Sequence record: SRR16203515_2613
Length of the DNA stretch: 54,506 bases
Strand: one strand, 5' to 3'
The position numbers and the translations under genes are program-made. The notes beneath the pieces were generated by a model. That model was given only the letters and a program-made list of their open reading frames with translations, was not told the DNA's origin and did no database searches. Of the stretch, positions 41,405-51,269 are shown in pieces; within the stretch, counting starts at the first letter, position 1, and each line of letters opens with the position of its first letter.

Positions 41405-41824
41405 ATGTCACTTAAAGACTCCAAAACAGAACAAAATCTGAAGGACGCTTTCGCCGGTGAATCGCAGGCAAACAGGCGTTACCTTTATTTTGCTTCAAAA
41501 GCCGATGTTGAAGGTTACAACGACGTTGCTGCTGTGTTTCGATCGACTGCAGAAGGGGAAACAGGCCACGCGCATGGTCACCTTGAGTATCTTGAGGAAA
41601 CAGGAGATCCCGCAACGGGTCTGCCCATTGGTGGTACGTCCGACAATCTGAAAGCCGCTGTCGCGGGCGAGACTCATGAGTACACCGATATGTACCCCGG
41701 TATGGCGAAGACTGCTCGTGATGAGGGTTTCGATGAGATCGCTGATTGGTTTGAGACGCTTGGAAAAGCCGAACGCTCCCATGCCAATCGATTCCAGAAG
41801 GCTTTGGATTCATTAGACGGTTAA
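41405..41824 (+). CDS. rbr: Rubrerythrin, short aerobic type without a rubredoxin domain
   Basis: [41 protein letters not shown] di-iron motifs; no CxxC domain. Confidence 0.92.
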
Positions 41825-41842
41825 GAGCTGTTTATTTGACGA

Positions 41843-41881
41843 TGCGAGAAGCGTTTCGGCGCTTCTCGCAAATTTTTATTT
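41843..41881 (+). terminator. Intrinsic terminator/stabiliser after rubrerythrin
   Basis: TGCGAGAAGCG...CGCTTCTCGCA arms around a TTCG loop, followed by AATTTTTATTT. Confidence 0.8.
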
Positions 41882-41898
41882 AGATCGGTGAGTTAAAA

Positions 41899-43224
41899 AT
41901 GGAAGGAAGCTTAAGCGCCCCAATTCGTCATCCAATTGATTGGCTGAGTAAGGATTTTAATGACGAAGAGAAGTTAATGACGGAGCTTGAACGCGTGTTT
42001 GACCTGTGTCATGGCTGCAGGCGCTGTGTATCGCTGTGTGACAGCTTTCCCACCCTTTTTGATCTCGTTGATGAATCGTCGACGATGGAAGTCGACGGGG
42101 TCGACAAGCAAGATTACTGGAAAGTGGTCGATCAGTGCTATTTGTGTGATCTGTGTTACATGACCAAATGCCCTTATGTTCCGCCCCATGAGTGGAACAT
42201 AGACTTTCCACATTTGATGTTGCGGGCGAAATCGGTGCGTTACCAAAAAGAAGGCGCGTCCGCTCGCGACAAGATGCTCACAAGTACTGATGCGGTGGGG
42301 AAAACGGCCGGGTTGCCCGGCGTCTCTATTGTGGTTAATGCCTCAAATCGCACAAAACCGATCAGAAAAGCGCTGGAAAAAGTGGCAGGTATTCACGCTG
42401 ACGCCCGAATTCCACCTTTTGAGTCTCGTCCATTGAGAAAAAGGATCGCAAAACGATTAACTCCTCTGGGAGAGGGTGCTGTGCCGGGCAAAAAGACCAA
42501 AGGCAAAGTTGCACTTTTTGCAACCTGTTATGTCAATCGCAACGAGCCGGGCCTTGGGGAAGATCTGTTATCCGTGCTCGAACACAATAACATTCCAGTC
42601 TCGATTGCAGAAAAAGAGGCGTGTTGTGGAATGCCGAAGCTCGAGTTGGGTGATCTCAAGTCAGTACAGAAAGCCAAGGAGCAGAATATTCCGCATCTCG
42701 CCAAATGTGTTGATGAAGGCTGGGATCTGCTGGCGTTAGTGCCGTCCTGTGCGTTGATGTTTAAACAGGAGTTGCCGCTACTTTTTCCTGATGATCCCGA
42801 TGTCCAAAAAGTGGCCAATGCATTTTATGATCCTTTTGAGTATCTGATGTTGCGCCATACCGAGGGACTACTGAGTACTGAATTCCAGAATGAGCTTGGA
42901 ACCGTGGTTTATCACGCCTCCTGCCATCAGCGTGTCCAGAATGCGGGCCCCAAAACACGTGACCTTCTCTCGCTAATACCGGGTACAGAAGTCACCATGA
43001 TCGAGCGGTGTTCTGGTCATGACGGGACTTATGGCGTGAAAGTCGAAACGTTTGATAAGGCGATGAAAATCGGTAGGCCGGTGATCAACGCAGTGAAAAA
43101 AAATCATCCGGATCATTATGGCAGCGACTGCCCCATTGCGGGCCATCACATCGCCAATGGCGTTAGCGACGGTAGTGAGCCGGCACACCCGATTAGCCTG
43201 CTTAAACAGGCGTATGGCATTTAA
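41899..43224 (+). CDS. Fe-S oxidoreductase (GlpC/heterodisulfide reductase-like, rubrerythrin-associated)
   Basis: CHGCRRCVSLC and CYLCDLC...CP 4Fe-4S motifs; CCG domains (CCGMP, CSGHDG, SDCP). Confidence 0.9.
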   Translation: MEGSLSAPIRHPIDWLSKDFNDEEKLMTELERVFDLCHGCRRCVSLCDSFPTLFDLVDESSTMEVDGVDKQDYWKVVDQCYLCDLCYMTKCPYVPPHEWNIDFPHLMLRAKSVRYQKEGASARDKMLTSTDAVGKTAGLPGVSIVVNASNRTKPIRKALEKVAGIHADARIPPFESRPLRKRIAKRLTPLGEGAVPGKKTKGKVALFATCYVNRNEPGLGEDLLSVLEHNNIPVSIAEKEACCGMPKLELGDLKSVQKAKEQNIPHLAKCVDEGWDLLALVPSCALMFKQELPLLFPDDPDVQKVANAFYDPFEYLMLRHTEGLLSTEFQNELGTVVYHASCHQRVQNAGPKTRDLLSLIPGTEVTMIERCSGHDGTYGVKVETFDKAMKIGRPVINAVKKNHPDHYGSDCPIAGHHIANGVSDGSEPAHPISLLKQAYGI

Positions 43225-43247
43225 ATTAATTGATGACAGGAGTAACC

Positions 43248-43838
43248 ATGAACACGTTAACCCGAGAAGATCTTTTTTCTCTAGAAGCCTATTCGACCGA
43301 GCGACAAGCTTTCCGAGCAAAGGTGCTGGATCATAAAGCCCATCGGCGCGTTACCATCGGGAAGAATGCGACGCTGTATTTTGAGGATGCATTAACGATG
43401 CAATACCAGGTTCAAGAGATGCTCCGCATTGAGCGCATTTTTGAGGCCGGTCAAATCCAGGAAGAACTTGACTCGTACAATCCGCTTATCCCGGATGGGT
43501 CCAATCTGAAGGCGACTTTTATGCTTGAGTACCCCGAAGTTGACGAGCGCCGCGAAGCCTTGGCACGTCTACTTGGGGTCGAGAGATCGGTGTGGCTCGC
43601 AGTTGGGGAAAACGATCGTATTCGACCGATTGCCAATGAAGATCTTGAAAGGGAAACCAGCGACAAAACCTCGGCAGTTCATTTTTTACGCTTTGAATTA
43701 TCGGAGCAGGACATTGCCGGATTTAAAGGGGGCGCGGTAGTGCGCTTTGGTATTGATCACCCTGAGTACGCATATGAAACAGAGATCAGTCCAGAGGTGA
43801 AGCAATCATTAGCAGCGGACCTTCAGAGCGCGGTTTAG
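43248..43838 (+). CDS. DUF3501 family protein
   Basis: YQVQEMLRIER, YNPLIP, KTSAVHFLRF, DHPEY; AGGAG RBS before ATG 43248. Confidence 0.88.
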   Translation: MNTLTREDLFSLEAYSTERQAFRAKVLDHKAHRRVTIGKNATLYFEDALTMQYQVQEMLRIERIFEAGQIQEELDSYNPLIPDGSNLKATFMLEYPEVDERREALARLLGVERSVWLAVGENDRIRPIANEDLERETSDKTSAVHFLRFELSEQDIAGFKGGAVVRFGIDHPEYAYETEISPEVKQSLAADLQSAV

Positions 43839-43845
43839 ACTTCTG

Positions 43846-43871
43846 ATCAGTACCTGAATTCAGGTACTGAT
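43846..43871. repeat. Perfect 26-bp palindrome between convergent operons
   Basis: ATCAGTACCTGAATTCAGGTACTGAT is its own reverse complement and overlaps the hutU stop codon. Confidence 0.9.
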
Positions 43872-45548
43872 ACCGGGTAGGTTTAGATTGTGCGCCTTTG
43901 CGCAATCGATTGCTTCTTCATAGCCCGCGTCGGCATGACGCATTACGCCGGACGCGGGATCATTCCACAGGACCCGAGCCAGTTTCTGGTCTGCAGAATG
44001 AGAGCCGTCAGCGAGGATAACGAGGCCTGCGTGCTGGGAAAAGCCGATACCGACACCACCACCGTGATGAAGGGAAACCCAGGTCGCGCCGGATGCCGTA
44101 TTGAGAAGTGCATTCAGTAACGGCCAGTCGGAAACGGCGTCAGATCCATCCTTCATCTTTTCGGTTTCGCGGTTTGGACTGGCAACCGACCCGCTATCCA
44201 GATGATCTCTGCCAATGACCACGGGCGCGCTGAGTTCGCCGTTCGCGACCATTTGGTTAAAAGCTCGTCCCACTCGGTCGCGATCGCCGAGACCGAGCCA
44301 GCAGATTCGGCTTGGCATCCCTTGAAACGAGATTCTTTTTTGTGCCATATCCAGCCATTGGTGTAGCTGGGGGTTGTCTGGAATGAGTTCCTTTACTTTC
44401 GCGTCAGTTCGATAAATATCTTCAGGATCTCCCGAGAGCGCGGCCCAGCGAAAGGGACCAATTCCCCTGCAAAACAGCGGTCGAACGTATGCGGGGACGA
44501 AGCCAGGATAATCAAATGCGTTGGCGATGCCGGACTCCTGGGCCATCTGGCGAATATTATTTCCGTAATCGACGACTGGTACCCCCCGGTCCCAGAAGTC
44601 GAGCATGGCTTTGACCTGGGTGGCCATGGAGGCTTTTGCCGCAGCGGCTACTGCATTGGGATCGGTCTTGCGCCGCGTTGTCCATTCTTCTACTGTCCAT
44701 CCCGCCGGAAGATAACCGTTTTGAGGATCATGAGCAGAGGTTTGATCGGTGACGGCATCCGGCTGGTATCGAGGGTCAGACTGAGAGCGGGCAACGAGGT
44801 CAGGATAAATTTCAGCTGCGTTTCCGAGCAGACCCACCGATATTGCCCTGCCATCAGCATGCGCATTTTCAACAAGATGAAGAGCATCCTCCACCGTGTC
44901 TGCCCAGGCGTCGAGGTAACGTGTTTTGAGTCGGAATTCAATAGACGCTCGATTACACTCGACGGCGATCATGGAGAAACCACTCATGGTGGCCGCGAGG
45001 GGTTGGGCGCCGCCCATGCCGCCGAGACCTGCTGTCAGGATCCATCGACCTTTTGCAGATCCGCCAAAATGTTGTCGCGCCATTTCGGCGAAGGTTTCGA
45101 AGGTGCCTTGAACGATGCCTTGGGAGCCGATATATATCCAAGAGCCGGCAGTCATCTGACCGTACATCATCAGTCCACGTTGATCGAGTTCCGAGAAGTG
45201 CTCTAAGGTTGCCCAATGCGGGACAAGGTTTGAATTAGCGATCAGGACGCGGGGCGCCTGCTCGTGGGTCTGAAAGACGCCAACGGGTTTGCCCGATTGA
45301 ACAAGCAATGTCTGGTCAATCTCAAGCGTCTTGAGGGAGGAGATAATCCGGTCGAAGCTGTCCCAGTCTCGTGCCGCTCGACCCACCCCGCCATAAACAA
45401 CCAACTCTGCCGGATTCTCGGCAACTGCCGGGTCAAGGTTGTTCATCAGCATCCGCATGGGTGCTTCCGTACTCCAATGCTTGCATTGCAGTTCGGGCCC
45501 TTTGGGCGCTTCGATATGTCTTTCGGGTGCGTATCGGTTGAGTTTCAT
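43860..45548 (-). CDS. hutU: Urocanate hydratase
   Basis: [67 protein letters not shown]. Start placed at ATG 45548. Confidence 0.97.
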
Positions 45549-45606
45549 TTTGATGAGTTGGATGGACGATGGGGTAATAATGCTTGTTGTAAACTTTTGG
45601 GTCGGG

Positions 45607-46185
45607 TCAGCTTCCGTAGCGGGACACCAGCTGTTTGACTGTTTCGGCGACTTGCGCCTGATGATAGCGTTCAAAATTATCCCAGGTCACGAGGCTGCGC
45701 GAATCTTTAACTCGATCCAAAAAAAGCATTCCCAAGAGGTGATCAACTTCGTGCTGGTAGGTTGCTGCTGTCATTCCTTTAACGCGTGTCTTTATCGGGT
45801 TGCCGTGGCGGTCTAGCGCGGTGACATCAATCTCGCAGTGTCGCTGCACCTTACCTCGAAGATTAGGCACACTAAGACATCCTTCATAATTTTCAAACGT
45901 ATCGTTACCGACAGGCGTGAGAATAGGATTAACCAGCACGGTAAGCGGGATGTTTGGGCGGTAGGGGTAACGAGGATTATCAAGGACTTCAATGACGCAG
46001 ATACGAAGCGACCGGTGAACCTGATTGGCGGCGAGCCCCGCGCCGTTAGCCGCCCGCATAGTCGCGATCAACTCGTCGATAAATAACTGCGTTTCTTTAT
46101 GTGCAAGCGTTTCGAGACTCAGCTCCATGGTGGGTTCACGCAGCACTGGATGGCCGACTTGTGCAATATCGAGAATCTTGGTCAT
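45607..46185 (-). CDS. def: Peptide deformylase family protein inside the hut operon
   Basis: All three PDF motifs: [23 protein letters not shown] overlap with the hutH stop. Confidence 0.93.
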
Positions 46186-47723
46186 GATGCGTCGACTACC
46201 GTGTCGAGTGGTTGGGTGGGCAGCAGCGTGGCGAGTTCACCGTGACTGATCAGGGACGATGCTGTATCGATATCAGGATAGAACACTCGGTCTTCCTGAT
46301 ACTCTGTTATTTGCCGTCGTAGTTTTTTAACAGCCGTTTCGACACAAGATGAGGATGTGAGTGGTCGCCGCAATGAAATCCCCTGTGATGCAGCAAGATA
46401 TTCAATTGCCAGAATATTTTGAGTGTTTTCGTTCATGGCGCGTAGCCGTCTTGCAGCAAATGTTGCCATGCTGACATGATCTTCCTGGTTCGCCGAGGTG
46501 GGCAGGCTATCCACGCTTGCGGGATGGGAAAGACTCTTATTTTCTGAGGCGAGTGCCGCTGCAGTCACATGGGCAACCATAAAGCCTGATTCAAGTCCTG
46601 CCTTGGTGGTAAGAAATGGGGGTAACTCGCTGATGCTCGAGTCGATGAGCATCGCGATCCGTCGCTCTGACAAACTGCCGGTCTCGGAAATGGCGAGCGC
46701 GATGTTGTCAGCCACCATTGCGACCGGCTCCGCATGAAAATTTCCGGCAGAGAGGACTTCACCGGTTTCTGGACAAATCAGAGGATTATCGGAGACTGCA
46801 TTGGCTTCGCGTAATAGTATTTTGGCGCCGTGATCGAGTTGGTCGAGGCATGCCCCCAGCACTTGTGGCTGACAGCGAAGACTGTATGGGTCTTGAACAC
46901 GGTCACAATTTGCATGGGATTGATTCAGTTGGCTATCGTTTAGCAGTGTCCGGTATAGGCTAGCGACTCGTGATTGACCAGATTGCCGTCTCACTTCGTG
47001 GATGCGCTGATCAAAAGGGACGTAACTTCCAAGCGTTGCGTCTACTGTTATTGAGCCGATCACAATTGCGCTGGCAAGATTTTGCTCCGCCGAAAAGAGA
47101 CCGTCGATGGCGAGAGCCGTAGAAATTTGTGTGCCGTTCAGTAAGGCTAGCCCTTCTTTTGCCTCCAGCACAAGGGGTGTTAATCCAGCGATCTGTAGCG
47201 CTTTAGCTGCCGGCATTCTGGTCTCGTTTAAAAAAACCTCTCCTTCCCCAATTAATGGGAGAGATAGATGAGCAAGCGGCGCGAGATCACCCGATGCGCC
47301 AACCGAGCCCTTTTCGGGGACAACGGGCACGATATCGTGACTGAGCATTGCCATGAAGTGCTCAATAATTTTTGGTCGCACGCCTGAATATCCCTGAGCA
47401 AGACTCAGAAGTTTGAGGATCATCGCGAGACGCACCACTTGCAGATCAATCGGTGTGCCAACGCCGGCAGCATGTGAGCGGATCAGGTTATGTTGTAGCG
47501 TTGATAAGTCGTTGACATCGACCTGAGTTTTTGCGAGTTTGCCAAAACCTGTATTGATGCCGTATGCGGGCGTTCCCCGTTGCACGACGGCAATGAGATG
47601 CTGATGACTGCGTTTGATCGGCTCCCAAGCAGAGTCAGGCAGTGAGATTTGGATGGGTTGTGATCTGATTTCTCGCAGTTCGTTTAAGATCAGGTGACCC
47701 GGGTTTAGCGTATAGGTTTGCAT
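46182..47723 (-). CDS. hutH: Histidine ammonia-lyase
   Basis: YGINTGFG, GSVGASGDLAPL (MIO-forming ASG), KEGLALLNGT, QDPYSLRCQPQV, GNFHAEP, NQEDHVSM. ATG 47723 (GTG 47729 is an alternative). Confidence 0.97.
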   Translation of the reverse strand: MQTYTLNPGHLILNELREIRSQPIQISLPDSAWEPIKRSHQHLIAVVQRGTPAYGINTGFGKLAKTQVDVNDLSTLQHNLIRSHAAGVGTPIDLQVVRLAMILKLLSLAQGYSGVRPKIIEHFMAMLSHDIVPVVPEKGSVGASGDLAPLAHLSLPLIGEGEVFLNETRMPAAKALQIAGLTPLVLEAKEGLALLNGTQISTALAIDGLFSAEQNLASAIVIGSITVDATLGSYVPFDQRIHEVRRQSGQSRVASLYRTLLNDSQLNQSHANCDRVQDPYSLRCQPQVLGACLDQLDHGAKILLREANAVSDNPLICPETGEVLSAGNFHAEPVAMVADNIALAISETGSLSERRIAMLIDSSISELPPFLTTKAGLESGFMVAHVTAAALASENKSLSHPASVDSLPTSANQEDHVSMATFAARRLRAMNENTQNILAIEYLAASQGISLRRPLTSSSCVETAVKKLRRQITEYQEDRVFYPDIDTASSLISHGELATLLPTQPLDTVVDAS

Positions 47724-47996
47724 GAGCACGGTTTTAACAGATTTTCGGAAACCGGACGAGTAAATTTTTTTATATTATTTTATTTTTTCTAACTTTTAAA
47801 ATTGTGAAGCAATGACGAGCAGAGTCTAAAAATGGAACGACATCTAAGTGGTCATTTTAAAAGTGCTGGGTGTGTTCACGCTTTTTGAAACTGGTGCTGC
47901 CTTTACGGCGCCAATCTGGGGTCACTGTTTGACCAGTCTGGGAGGGAATATCCGGCCCCCTTCCTCTTTCTCAACTTTTAAGAGACGGTAAACACT

Positions 47997-48155
47997 ATGG
48001 ATGCCTTGCTACTGCCCATAACCGCTACAGTAATCGTGGTGAGCCTGCTTTGGAGGTTCCGCTCAACAAAATGGGCGATCGGAATTATCTTTGCATTGTG
48101 CTCAATCGGGGTTTACGCGCTCTTATATCTCGGATGGGTACAGTTTCAGTTTTAG
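47997..48155 (+). CDS. Small 52-aa two-helix membrane protein, or the 3' remnant of a decayed membrane protein gene
   Basis: Read by hand: MDALLLPITATVIVVSLLWRFRSTKWAIGIIFALCSIGVYALLYLGWVQFQF*. Below the ORF-track cutoff, no clear RBS. Confidence 0.4.
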   Translation: MDALLLPITATVIVVSLLWRFRSTKWAIGIIFALCSIGVYALLYLGWVQFQF

Positions 48156-48164
48156 TTGGAGTCT

Positions 48165-49568
48165 TCACGTTTCGGTGAGTGCCAACGATTGGATCATCCT
48201 GCGATAAGCCGTTGTTGCAGCTTCCCGGTTCGGGTGCACCCCGTTTTGAACAACCTGCTTTGCCCCAACAATCACGGTTTTTACCGGATTAAACGGGCCT
48301 GAAAAAATCCAGGTATCCAGGACCTGATCGAGGGTTCGGTTAGAGAATTCAACATGGTCCGAATTCAGCTCAACGAGATCACCCCGTGACCCGGGCTGTA
48401 GTCCGCATACAAACTCGCCTTGCGCCCGGTTGCCGCCAATGACTGCGGCGTCTATGAGTGATCGACCATTACTTTTTGTAGCATCTGTAACCAGTACCGC
48501 CCGCTTTTGCCGACTCAATCTCTGTCCGTATTCAAGAAGCTGAAGCTCGTGAGCCGGAGATGTGCTGACCTGGCTGTCAGATCCAATCCCGAAAAAGCCA
48601 TTGTTTGCTATTAGCTCTGATGCGGGAAAAATACCGTCTCCTAGATTTGCTTCGGTTGCGGGGCAGAGTCCAACGGTCACGCCGCTTTTGGCAATTAGCG
48701 CTTGTTCTTTACGATCGACATGTGTCGCGTGAATCAGACACCACTGATGAGTGACATCACATTGATCGAATAACCAGCTAACGGGTCTAGCAGAATTGAC
48801 CGCCACGCAGTCATTTACTTCTTTTATCTGTTCGGCCACATGAATGTGAATCGGGGCGTCCTTAAGAATACTTTTTGCGTGCGTTATTGTGGCGTTTAAA
48901 TCTTGAGGAGAAACGGCACGTAGGGAATGGGCCGCAATGCCTATCGAGCGGTCAGAATCTTCAGCACAGAGCGAGTGGCATTCAGAAAGAAGTCTAAGAT
49001 AGCCATCTGGATCGTGAAAGAACCGATTCTGTGCGTCCTTGATCGGTTCATTTTCAAAACCGCCACGACAATAAAGCGTGGGCAGTAAAGTGATAGCGAT
49101 ACCGGCCTCTGAGGCTGCGTCGAAAAGGCGTTCCGACATTTCACTTTGGTTTGAATATGGAATGCCATCAGGCTGATGATGCAGGTAGTGAAACTCCGCA
49201 ACAGATGTATACCCCTTGACCAACATATCAATATAAAGGTAGTTAGCGATTATCTGCAGCTGTTCAGGGTTAAGTCGCGAATTAGCGCGGTACATCAGTT
49301 CGCGCCATCCCCAGAAATCATCCTGACCCGGTACTCGATGTTCGGTTAATCCCGTGATCGCTTTTTGATGCGCATGAGAGTGCAGGTTTGGGATGCCTGC
49401 AATAACAATACCCTCAAGATAAAGGTCTACATCAGAGGTTTCATCTTCCCGAACGCTCTCAATTCGGCCCTGATCACTAAATTGCACAACGCAGTTTTTC
49501 TGCCAGCCGGATGCGGTCAGCGCATTGGCGCATCGGACGGACGTTAGGCGAGAGACTGAATGGTTCAT
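48165..49568 (-). CDS. hutF: Formimidoylglutamate deiminase
   Basis: PNLHSHAHQ, DDFWGWRE.MY, GYTSVAEFHYLHH, HSLRAV, HIHVAEQ, EANLGDGIF, GSDS, LEYGQRL. Confidence 0.95.
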   Translation of the reverse strand: MNHSVSRLTSVRCANALTASGWQKNCVVQFSDQGRIESVREDETSDVDLYLEGIVIAGIPNLHSHAHQKAITGLTEHRVPGQDDFWGWRELMYRANSRLNPEQLQIIANYLYIDMLVKGYTSVAEFHYLHHQPDGIPYSNQSEMSERLFDAASEAGIAITLLPTLYCRGGFENEPIKDAQNRFFHDPDGYLRLLSECHSLCAEDSDRSIGIAAHSLRAVSPQDLNATITHAKSILKDAPIHIHVAEQIKEVNDCVAVNSARPVSWLFDQCDVTHQWCLIHATHVDRKEQALIAKSGVTVGLCPATEANLGDGIFPASELIANNGFFGIGSDSQVSTSPAHELQLLEYGQRLSRQKRAVLVTDATKSNGRSLIDAAVIGGNRAQGEFVCGLQPGSRGDLVELNSDHVEFSNRTLDQVLDTWIFSGPFNPVKTVIVGAKQVVQNGVHPNREAATTAYRRMIQSLALTET

Positions 49569-49676
49569 GCGATGTTCAGTTAATTGTGGGATGACAGATT
49601 TGTTACTGATGAGTATGACTTGTACTAACTGATGATAGACATTTTAGATTCATTTAAGCTATCCCGGCTTGGCCAT

Positions 49677-51269
49677 CTAACGCAGAATGACATCTGCAAG
49701 TTTTTCCGCCATCATGGTGACAGGCGCGTTGAGATTAGCGGTCACGTTGTGAGGCATGATTGACGCATCAACGACGCGTAATCCTTCTGTCTCGTGAACC
49801 AATCCCTCCGAATTTGTAACAGAATTATCGCCAGTTCCCATGCGACAGGTTGAGGTGGGGTGGTATTCCGTTGAGGCAGTCGCGCGGAGCCAACTCATAA
49901 TTTCATCATCGCTTTGCACGTCTTTCCCTGGTGCCAGCTCATGACTTCGCAAACCATCAAAAGCGGGTTGTGCTGCCATCTCACGTGTTCGTCTGACACC
50001 GTCGATCATAACTTGGCGATCACGCTCTGCTTCAAAAAAATGATATGAGATTGAGGGGTGATGATTGGGGTTACCTGATTTCAGCATCACCTTTCCGCGA
50101 CTCTCGGGCCGCATTAAACCCATCGAGAACATGAAACCGTCCTCAAAGTTTGCGACAGGATCACCCATATCGGCGGTCATGGCATAAAATTCATGCTGAA
50201 GATCTGCGTAGTCAACATCAGGCGAGCTCTTAAAGAAACAGCCAGTCTCGCAGATAGTTGATGCGCCTAATCCGGATTTCAACAGCATCCATTCAAGACC
50301 GATACGGTATTTCCCCAAGCCTTTGAAACTCTGAGCCCATGAAACGCCTTTTGGCGTCGCATAAGTGATCGGCACAATTTGATGATTTTCGAGATTTTTT
50401 CCGACCGCGGGGACATTGGCTACCGTGGTGATGCCGTGACTGGCGAGATGGACAGGGTCACCAACTCCCGATAACAAAAGAAGCTGAGGGGAATTGATCG
50501 CACCGCTAGATAAAATTATTTCGCGACTTGCCTCATACCGAGTCTGCCTTCCATTTTTTTCTGCAAGTACCGCAACAGCACGTTTGCCATCAAACTGAAT
50601 TTGGTGAGCCAGAGTATTCGTTAAAACGGCGAGATTTTCCCGTTGCATAACAGGATGTAAATATGCCTTCGCTGCGCTACAGCGCTGACCGTTTCGTGTG
50701 AAACTCTGGGCAACGTGAAAGCCCTCGTGTTGTTTGCCGTTCTGGTCCGAGGTAATTCCATAGCCGGCTTGTTGGCCAGCCTTCAGAAATGCCTGGTGAA
50801 GGGGGTGCGTTGCGTTGCACGTTTCTATGGTTTGCGGTCCACTGTCGCCTCGAAACTCGCTTTTACCTTTATCTGATGTTTCCATTTTTCGGAAATAAGG
50901 CAGACACTCTTCATAACGCCACTCCGAAAGGCCTTCGCTTGCCCACGCATCATAATCCTTGGGATTACCGCGATTGGCAACCATGCCATTGATAGCTGAA
51001 GAGCCTCCAAGGACTCGACCGCGATGCTCCAAAATTTGCCGCCCGTCACAGTATGGTTCAGGTTCACTGGTGTACCCCCAATCGAAACGCGGGTCACGTG
51101 CTGCCATTCCACAAGCGGCTGGCATTTGAATGAGGATGCTTCGATCATTCCCCCCAGCCTCTATCAGCAAGACCCGATTGGACGATTGCTCAGTTAGCCT
51201 GTTGGCTAGAACACATCCAGCTGATCCAGCGCCAACAATGATGTAATCAAAGATCCGATTTTGTTCCAC
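49677..51269 (-). CDS. GMC family oxidoreductase (choline dehydrogenase-like)
   Basis: DYIIVGAGSAGC, RGRVLGGSSAINGM, GAINSPQLLLLSG, YHPTSTCRMG, LRVVDASIMP, NLNAP. Substrate uncertain. Confidence 0.9.
   Translation of the reverse strand: MEQNRIFDYIIVGAGSAGCVLANRLTEQSSNRVLLIEAGGNDRSILIQMPAACGMAARDPRFDWGYTSEPEPYCDGRQILEHRGRVLGGSSAINGMVANRGNPKDYDAWASEGLSEWRYEECLPYFRKMETSDKGKSEFRGDSGPQTIETCNATHPLHQAFLKAGQQAGYGITSDQNGKQHEGFHVAQSFTRNGQRCSAAKAYLHPVMQRENLAVLTNTLAHQIQFDGKRAVAVLAEKNGRQTRYEASREIILSSGAINSPQLLLLSGVGDPVHLASHGITTVANVPAVGKNLENHQIVPITYATPKGVSWAQSFKGLGKYRIGLEWMLLKSGLGASTICETGCFFKSSPDVDYADLQHEFYAMTADMGDPVANFEDGFMFSMGLMRPESRGKVMLKSGNPNHHPSISYHFFEAERDRQVMIDGVRRTREMAAQPAFDGLRSHELAPGKDVQSDDEIMSWLRATASTEYHPTSTCRMGTGDNSVTNSEGLVHETEGLRVVDASIMPHNVTANLNAPVTMMAEKLADVILR

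Follow-up and report, generated by a model that had tools for sequence, protein, structure and literature searches.

The window analysed here, a stretch of 54,506 nucleotides of a marine bacterium from sequence record SRR16203515_2613, carries on its minus strand four genes which, as judged from the list of open reading frames (ORFs) and from family scans, lie in the order hutF, hutH, a gene for a paralog of the peptide-deformylase (PDF) family, and hutU (Table 1). We use the name PDFh for the PDF subclade that contains the window protein. The initial annotation had suggested, as a putative function, that the paralog replaces HutG, the N-formylglutamate deformylase of HutF-type histidine utilisation. 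Comparative evidence, namely the absence of hutG, a phyletic alternation between the two genes and a recurrent linkage to hut genes, supports that suggestion, and we consider PDFh to be, probably, a non-orthologous N-formylglutamate deformylase in place of HutG. The phyletic pattern is the strongest evidence for this reading.

The gene cluster and the PDFh protein

The plus strand reads TCAT at 46182-46185, that is ATGA on the minus strand, and the ATG of PDFh overlaps the TGA of hutH, the two genes being translationally coupled. The ORF listing puts the start of hutU at a TTG at 45674, inside the PDFh gene; we took the first ATG, at 45548, as its start, which gives the 58-nt spacer of Table 1, and the alignment to the hutU model begins 10 residues later. 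The overlap with hutH, the distance to hutU and the upstream position of hutF are all as initially described, and so is the lack of hutG and fmt: a tblastn search of the whole window with hutG, a PF05013 paralog (see below), fmt, hutI and a housekeeping def as queries matched only the four hut/def genes, so that hutG, fmt and hutI are missing from the window.

A scan of positions 43600-49900 for promoters and terminators gave counts not above those in shuffled sequence, and therefore no signal of an operon boundary either way. It found no terminator-like site in the spacer between PDFh and hutU, and the promoter-like match between hutF and hutH is a possible start of a hutH-PDFh-hutU unit, such matches being no commoner than in the shuffles. 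Contigs from RNA libraries (four runs, three studies) cover PDFh, DNA being something that can be present in such libraries; one of them, of 742 nt from run X4 (45704-46445), spans the junction of hutH and PDFh, though contigs cannot prove a single transcript. On the opposite, plus strand, abutting the end of hutU, lies a trio encoding a rubrerythrin (139 aa), a GlpC-like CCG/4Fe-4S protein (441 aa) and a DUF3501 protein (202 aa), at 41405-43838.

Table 1. Features of the hut cluster in the window, and PhyH-family genes at loci of PDFh relatives (coordinates of each locus)
Feature	Position	Strand	Evidence
hutF, formimidoylglutamate deiminase	48165-49568	minus	TIGR02022 542.4 bits (cut-off 413), NF006684 579 bits, PF01979
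hutF-hutH spacer, 435 nt	47730-48164	minus	promoter-like match at 47974-47947
hutH, histidine ammonia-lyase	46182-47729	minus	TIGR01225 666.5 bits, PF00221 600 bits
PDFh, 192-aa PDF-family paralog, candidate N-formylglutamate deformylase	45607-46185	minus	PF01327
PDFh-hutU spacer, 58 nt	45549-45606	minus	ORF coordinates
hutU, urocanate hydratase	43860-45548	minus	TIGR01228 934.6 bits and three urocanase Pfam domains
PhyH genes	L012 3113-3940; L017 3929-4756; 15 further loci; L101 6110-6955, 14151-14996; L108 6309-7121; L069 10862-11668

PDFh passes the PDF models PF01327 (152.9 bits against a cut-off of 22.8) and NF001159 (152 against 125), and narrowly passes TIGR00079 (109.4 against 103.95); the family scans gave no match to PF05013 or TIGR02017, and it is not a member of the HutG family. 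The catalytic motifs GxGLAAxQ, EGCLS and QHExDH (YQHEVDH in PDFh) are intact, with metal ligands C103, H145 and H149 and catalytic residues E146 and Q55, and they are invariant in 38 members of the clade; here motif inspection and the clade alignment agree with what the initial annotation had stated. An AlphaFold (AF2) model built on the same 38 members has a pLDDT of 96.8. With Foldseek its top 40 or more matches are all PDFs, the best being 1SV2, the PDF of Leptospira interrogans (TM 0.86/0.97, root-mean-square deviation 1.0 Å), and among proteins of solved structure this enzyme is the closest in sequence as well (phmmer 126 bits, gapless). Homologs at 59-99% identity occur in Arenicellales and other marine Gammaproteobacteria, SAR324, Acidimicrobiia and many Myxococcota, and every database homolog that has a name is labelled 'peptide deformylase'.

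When 88 sequences were aligned and 150 cluster representatives scanned, a signature of the clade emerged, consisting of Ala in GxG (GAG), an NxRYPY[R/K]P loop, A[A/G]T-x-QHE, usually an Asn directly before EGC, and a conserved C-terminal segment. In the window protein these elements are G48-A49-G50, N70-P-R-Y-P-Y-R-P77, A141-T142, N99, and the C-terminal T167, W168, F171 and R173. Across the 38 diverse members A49, R72, Y73, Y75, T142 and all the catalytic residues are invariant, and when 93 PDFs were placed in a maximum-likelihood tree, every one of the 38 signature-bearing rows fell in one branch (SH-aLRT 96), free of any row that lacks the signature.

The hydrophobic residues that line the S1' pocket of housekeeping Def proteins are replaced in PDFh by A49, A141 and T142, which vary little or not at all among clade members; at the same positions the housekeeping def of the nearest complete genome (G001) has I, I and C, and the Leptospira PDF has V, I and V. 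We take A141 and T142 to correspond to Ile128 and Cys129 of the E. coli enzyme and N99 to its Ile86, an assignment consistent with the I, C and T that the G001 housekeeping def has in these alignment columns. Position 49 is equivalent to Ile44 of E. coli and Ile42 of Arabidopsis; according to passages of PMC3101196 this residue forms with its side chain the hydrophobic S1' pocket that receives the side chain of N-formylmethionine (fMet), and the hydrophobic P1':S1' contact is the primary driving force of active-site closure. The initial annotation had called attention to altered residues near this pocket, and it was right about the Ala of GAG and about the A-T before the Tyr, which are clade-specific. 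Its point about the Y of YQHE is weaker, since by itself this residue is no sign of changed specificity: the Leptospira protein, a genuine peptide deformylase, also has YQHE.

Genomic distribution of PDFh, hutF and hutG

Three samples, comprising 313 genomes, were each searched with the PDFh protein, the hutF model and the hutG model. When the samples are pooled, PDFh is found in 53 of the 66 genomes that have hutF and lack hutG, in 1 of the 42 that have both hutF and hutG, and in 6 of the 205 without hutF, so that 54 of the 60 PDFh-bearing genomes have hutF; related genomes are not independent, and raw counts such as these overstate the statistics. A tree of hutF was built for that reason, from 60 of the 74 full-length hits in the order sample (12 near-duplicate rows of genus g1 and two of genus g17 being omitted), and it requires at least six changes between hutG-partnered and PDFh-partnered hutF. 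The co-occurrence with hutF and the anti-correlation with hutG which the initial annotation had put forward as a check are thus both seen, PDFh and hutG being almost mutually exclusive in three distant lineages.

The order sample, drawn from the window's own order, contains 151 genomes. Proteins were counted as PDFh-like at 45% identity or more and 174 bits or more, the next score being 128. All of the 29 genomes with a PDFh-like protein are among the 79 that have hutF, and 28 of them are without hutG; none of the 72 genomes lacking hutF has one, and among the 40 with both hutF and hutG (one hutG being a contig-end fragment) it is present in a single genome, G051. The alternation extends within genera: the 10 hutF-bearing genomes of g16 comprise five with hutG and five with PDFh, and g22 has two with PDFh and one with hutG. 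It was considered whether g16 records an in-place exchange of hutG for PDFh, an idea that was dropped when the hutG-type and PDFh-type clusters proved to ride on different hutF lineages; the genus probably holds two cluster types which have been exchanged as wholes. Eleven genomes of the order sample have hutF and neither of the two enzymes. Four of these (G016, G080, G085 and G008) are without hutU, in G065 hutU is cut at contig starts, and G003, G086 and G101 have a partial hutF or are 71-92% complete; the other three are taken up below.

In the Polyangia sample (81 genomes) PDFh occurs in all 16 genomes with hutF and without hutG, in neither of the two with both, and in 6 of the 63 without hutF, two weaker PDF matches (171 and 136 bits) being excluded from the counts. 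In the Acidimicrobiia sample, also of 81 genomes, hutG was found in none; PDFh is present in nine, all with hutF, and two genomes with hutF are without PDFh. In these nine PDFh lies within 3 kb of hutF, and in seven within 60 nt, both gene orders being represented.

G001, a single 2.74-Mb contig with 40% of the window's sampled 31-mers in common, carries the same hutF-hutH-PDFh-hutU cluster, with hutI at 536 kb, about 20 kb away. It has a separate housekeeping def (180 aa) immediately followed by fmt. The best TIGR02017 scores in the nearest complete genomes are 38-44 bits against a cut-off of 278.75, none being above 38 bits in the search of G001, and a profile search of G001 found no formiminoglutamase reaching its cut-off; at the genome-wide level, then, these nearest genomes have no hutG-level gene and G001 does have a separate def-fmt pair, the two points that the initial annotation had proposed to check. 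Five named carriers at a greater distance (Nannocystis, Enhygromyxa, Plesiocystis, one Acidimicrobiia metagenome-assembled genome (MAG) and one SAR324 MAG) each have hutF and at least two PDF genes, and none of the five has a hutG above cut-off. That PDFh might be the sole housekeeping PDF of Myxococcota was ruled out by the two to four PDF genes present in each of three genomes checked.

G001 also holds a paralog of the FGase family, PF05013 (145 bits; locus L004 8231-9001, about 1.025 Mb). On TIGR02017 this paralog scores only 38-42 bits, to be set against the cut-off given above, and its neighbours are an EamA transporter and a hydantoinase/oxoprolinase-like gene, one on either side, and not hut genes. 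Its distribution is not that of the hut pathway, since it is present in 18 of 18 genomes of the genus regardless of the pathway genes, including two without hutF and three without hutU, and as the main explanation, that is as a hidden hutG, it was rejected on that ground.

Two further features of these genomes may be recorded. In a close relative (G002, contig 1) PDFh at 530941-531516 and hutF at 546529-547884 are about 15 kb apart, as against 2 kb in the window and in G001, a distance that suggests that an insertion has separated hutF from hutH. Next to hutI in G001 (L087, about 535-539 kb) is the gene of another lyase of the HAL family, which has 479 aa and 28% identity to hutH, and in relatives a minus-strand trio just upstream of hutF (L012 581-2008, 2074-3075 and 3113-3940) encodes such a lyase, an ornithine-cyclodeaminase-like protein and a PhyH protein; through this trio a histidine derivative may be fed in.

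The neighbourhoods of PDFh homologs were surveyed at 80 loci, and linkage to hut genes, which the initial annotation had asked of relatives, does recur, in several gene orders. The order hutF-hutH-PDFh-hutU is seen at all 19 loci from genus g1 (at least 72% identity), and where a flank is truncated it holds for the genes that are left. In an Acidimicrobiia MAG the order is hutU-hutF-PDFh-hutI, and the ORFs overlap (hutF 455 bits, hutI 378 bits). A more distant PDFh subclade, at 45-51% identity, is found inside the window's own order; G052 has hutF-hutH-PDFh, where its congener G046 has hutG after hutH instead, and in G077 PDFh adjoins hutI.

A PhyH-family (PF05721) dioxygenase gene is the other recurrent companion. 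It adjoins PDFh twice in G031 and once in G097, and it is near hutF or PDFh in 17 of the 80 loci. The taxa in which it recurs near one or the other gene are Arenicellales, Acidimicrobiia and family f8, and in the last of these it directly adjoins PDFh in divergent orientation. The window contains no close homolog of the PhyH gene of that cluster, the best tblastn matches being 28% and 24% identical. In G031 the PhyH-PDFh pair is present twice, inverted and some 6 kb apart (L101 6110-7616 and 13490-14996), and the two PDFh copies are almost identical, with end branches of 0.004 and 0 in the PDF tree.

Proposed role and alternative explanations

PDFh would, on our reading, be a metal-dependent amidohydrolase of the PDF fold that was recruited to the five-step, HutF-type route of histidine utilisation. 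HutH, HutU and HutI would take histidine to N-formimino-L-glutamate, HutF would deiminate this to N-formyl-L-glutamate, and PDFh would hydrolyse the formyl amide of the latter, giving formate and L-glutamate (the HutG step, EC 3.5.1.68). Cys103, His145 and His149 would bind the metal and Glu146 would be the general acid/base, while Gln55 and the amide of Leu104 would make up the oxyanion hole, as in PDFs. From the sequence comparison we infer that the pocket changes (Ile to Ala in GxG, Ile to Ala/Gly and Cys to Thr before QHE, and Ile to Asn before EGC) may adapt the site to glutamate, with its side chain and its free alpha-carboxylate, an adaptation in which the lid loop may share through its basic and aromatic residues R72, Y75 and R/K76, and N-formyl-L-glutamate is accordingly put forward as the predicted substrate.

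A number of observations weigh against this assignment. Canonical PDFs act poorly on free N-formyl amino acids. G051 carries both PDFh and hutG, and three complete or near-complete genomes (G038, G050 and G112; loci L104, L105 and L106) have hutU-hutI and hutF-hutH clusters with neither enzyme; in these, N-formylglutamate must be dealt with by some third route, unless it is left unhydrolysed. Six Polyangia genomes have PDFh without a hutF at cut-off level. Five of the six (G194, G184, G165, G209 and G174) were checked, and all have hutU together with a hutF-like amidohydrolase at 150-180 bits, well below the hutF cut-off, which may be a divergent formiminoglutamate deiminase. Physical linkage to hut genes is lacking at five marine loci (67-71% identity), which have NudC-like and F420-type oxidoreductase genes downstream, at about 50 Myxococcota loci, where the neighbours are MXAN_5187-family and ComEC genes, and at five of the six loci of family f8, where the constant PhyH neighbour could point to another substrate. 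The PF05013 paralog of the nearest genome could in principle hydrolyse N-formylglutamate. To these must be added the non-independence of related genomes noted above, and the fact that the absence of hutG is established for G001 and close relatives, the window's own assembly lying outside the searched set.

Three other explanations have been weighed. In the first, which we think unlikely, PDFh does serve the histidine pathway and acts on some other compound (N-formimino-L-glutamate, N-formyl-L-aspartate or a formylated product made with the PhyH dioxygenase), with N-formylglutamate left to another enzyme. The recurrence of PhyH beside PDFh and hutF would then have a ready meaning, three genomes do run hutF with neither hutG nor PDFh, and a PF05013 paralog is at hand in the nearest genome. 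Against this, near-exclusive alternation with hutG specifically is what the replacement of that one step predicts, as is the direct adjacency to hutF in seven of the nine Acidimicrobiia; moreover the window has no close PhyH homolog, and the PF05013 paralog follows neither hutF nor hutU.

Less likely again, and to our minds quite doubtful, is that PDFh is an ordinary accessory PDF working on nascent fMet-peptides, for example as a stress- or inhibitor-tolerant spare, and that its place among hut genes is a case of hitch-hiking. The motifs and fold are all those of active PDFs, the cut-off of the TIGR00079 equivalog model is passed, if narrowly, and most Myxococcota members are not hut-linked; accessory PDFs are, moreover, common in bacteria, and passages of PMC12690207 read them as adaptive spare copies. 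A spare of that kind does not account for a distribution in which PDFh is absent from 199 of 205 genomes without hutF and from 41 of 42 with both hutF and hutG, and yet present in 53 of 66 with hutF alone, in three phyla and including lineages where the genes are unlinked. It also leaves unexplained the invariant loss of the hydrophobic S1' residues.

The notion that the distant PF05013 paralog is the real N-formylglutamate amidohydrolase, PDFh being auxiliary to it (for instance as a deformylase insensitive to accumulating N-formylglutamate), has in its favour a match to a family that includes the characterised HutG, and is hardly credible given the paralog's low score on the hutG equivalog model, its surroundings and its presence throughout the genus with or without hutF and hutU. 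All three of these explanations account poorly for the alternation with hutG and the adjacency to hutF.

Returning to PDFh as the replacement of HutG, we think it rather likely that the whole clade, spread widely over Gammaproteobacteria, Myxococcota, Acidimicrobiia, SAR324 and Bdellovibrionota-like MAGs, consists of N-formylglutamate deformylases which have replaced HutG repeatedly and which would be the first enzymes of the PDF fold with a free small molecule as their physiological substrate, their pocket, lid loop and C-terminal segment having been re-tooled for a dicarboxylate. PDFs are regarded as dedicated co-translational enzymes and as antibiotic targets, and a catabolic subclade, if the reading is true, would widen the known chemistry of the fold and show how few pocket changes separate an enzyme for fMet-peptides from one for a dicarboxylic formyl amino acid. 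It would also supply the final enzyme that HutF-type histidine breakdown is recognised to be missing, and allow the metabolism of abundant marine Arenicellales, Acidimicrobiia and Myxococcota, in which this pathway otherwise looks incomplete, to be reconstructed better. The label 'peptide deformylase' would then be wrong for the PDFh clade in thousands of genomes and metagenomes.

Comparison with known systems

A full-text literature search, outside subscription journals and supplementary files, found no paper that connects members of the PDF family with either N-formylglutamate or hut genes. The same hole in the pathway, hutF without hutG, has been noticed before: passages of PMC3223725 give as the SEED 'alternative form' for it COG0624, an M20 protein and thus of a different protein family from PDFh, and according to Table 3 of that paper the COG0624 candidate of Streptomyces avermitilis had no deformylase activity. 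Accessory PDFs are treated in a 2025 survey in Mol Biol Evol (PMC12690207), passages of which regard them as peptide deformylases and link them to mobile elements, biosynthetic clusters and inhibitor resistance, and whose main text contains no occurrence of 'hut', 'urocan' or 'metabolic'. PDFh resembles the surveyed proteins in being a second PDF copy besides the housekeeping gene of the def-fmt pair. Comparative evidence supports regarding it as a putative new functional variant of a known enzyme family which fills a known pathway step.

With the PDF of Leptospira interrogans (EC 3.5.1.88; 1SV2, 1SZZ and 1Y6H) PDFh has in common the fold, the three motifs, the Cys and two His ligands, the catalytic Glu and the oxyanion Gln. 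The two are also alike in an enlarged R-Y-P loop between strands, named the 'CD loop' in passages of PMC3101196, where in the Leptospira enzyme it is described as opening and closing over the active site.

From housekeeping PDFs PDFh differs in having Ala49, Asn99, Ala/Gly141 and Thr142 where those have Ile/Val, Ile/Phe, Ile and Cys/Val, on what we take to be the E. coli equivalences, and in the invariant Y75 and R/K76 of its loop and the clade-specific conservation of its C-terminal 30 residues. Its gene, unlike the housekeeping def, is not beside fmt; it lies in, or co-occurs with, the HutF-type hut genes, and G001 has its def-fmt pair elsewhere. To HutG, a member of the FGase family (PF05013, TIGR02017) in the Pseudomonas-type five-step pathway, PDFh has no relationship of sequence or fold, and the likeness would lie in the reaction proposed here and in the position in the pathway, both genes being found after hutH, as in G046 for hutG and in G052 for PDFh.

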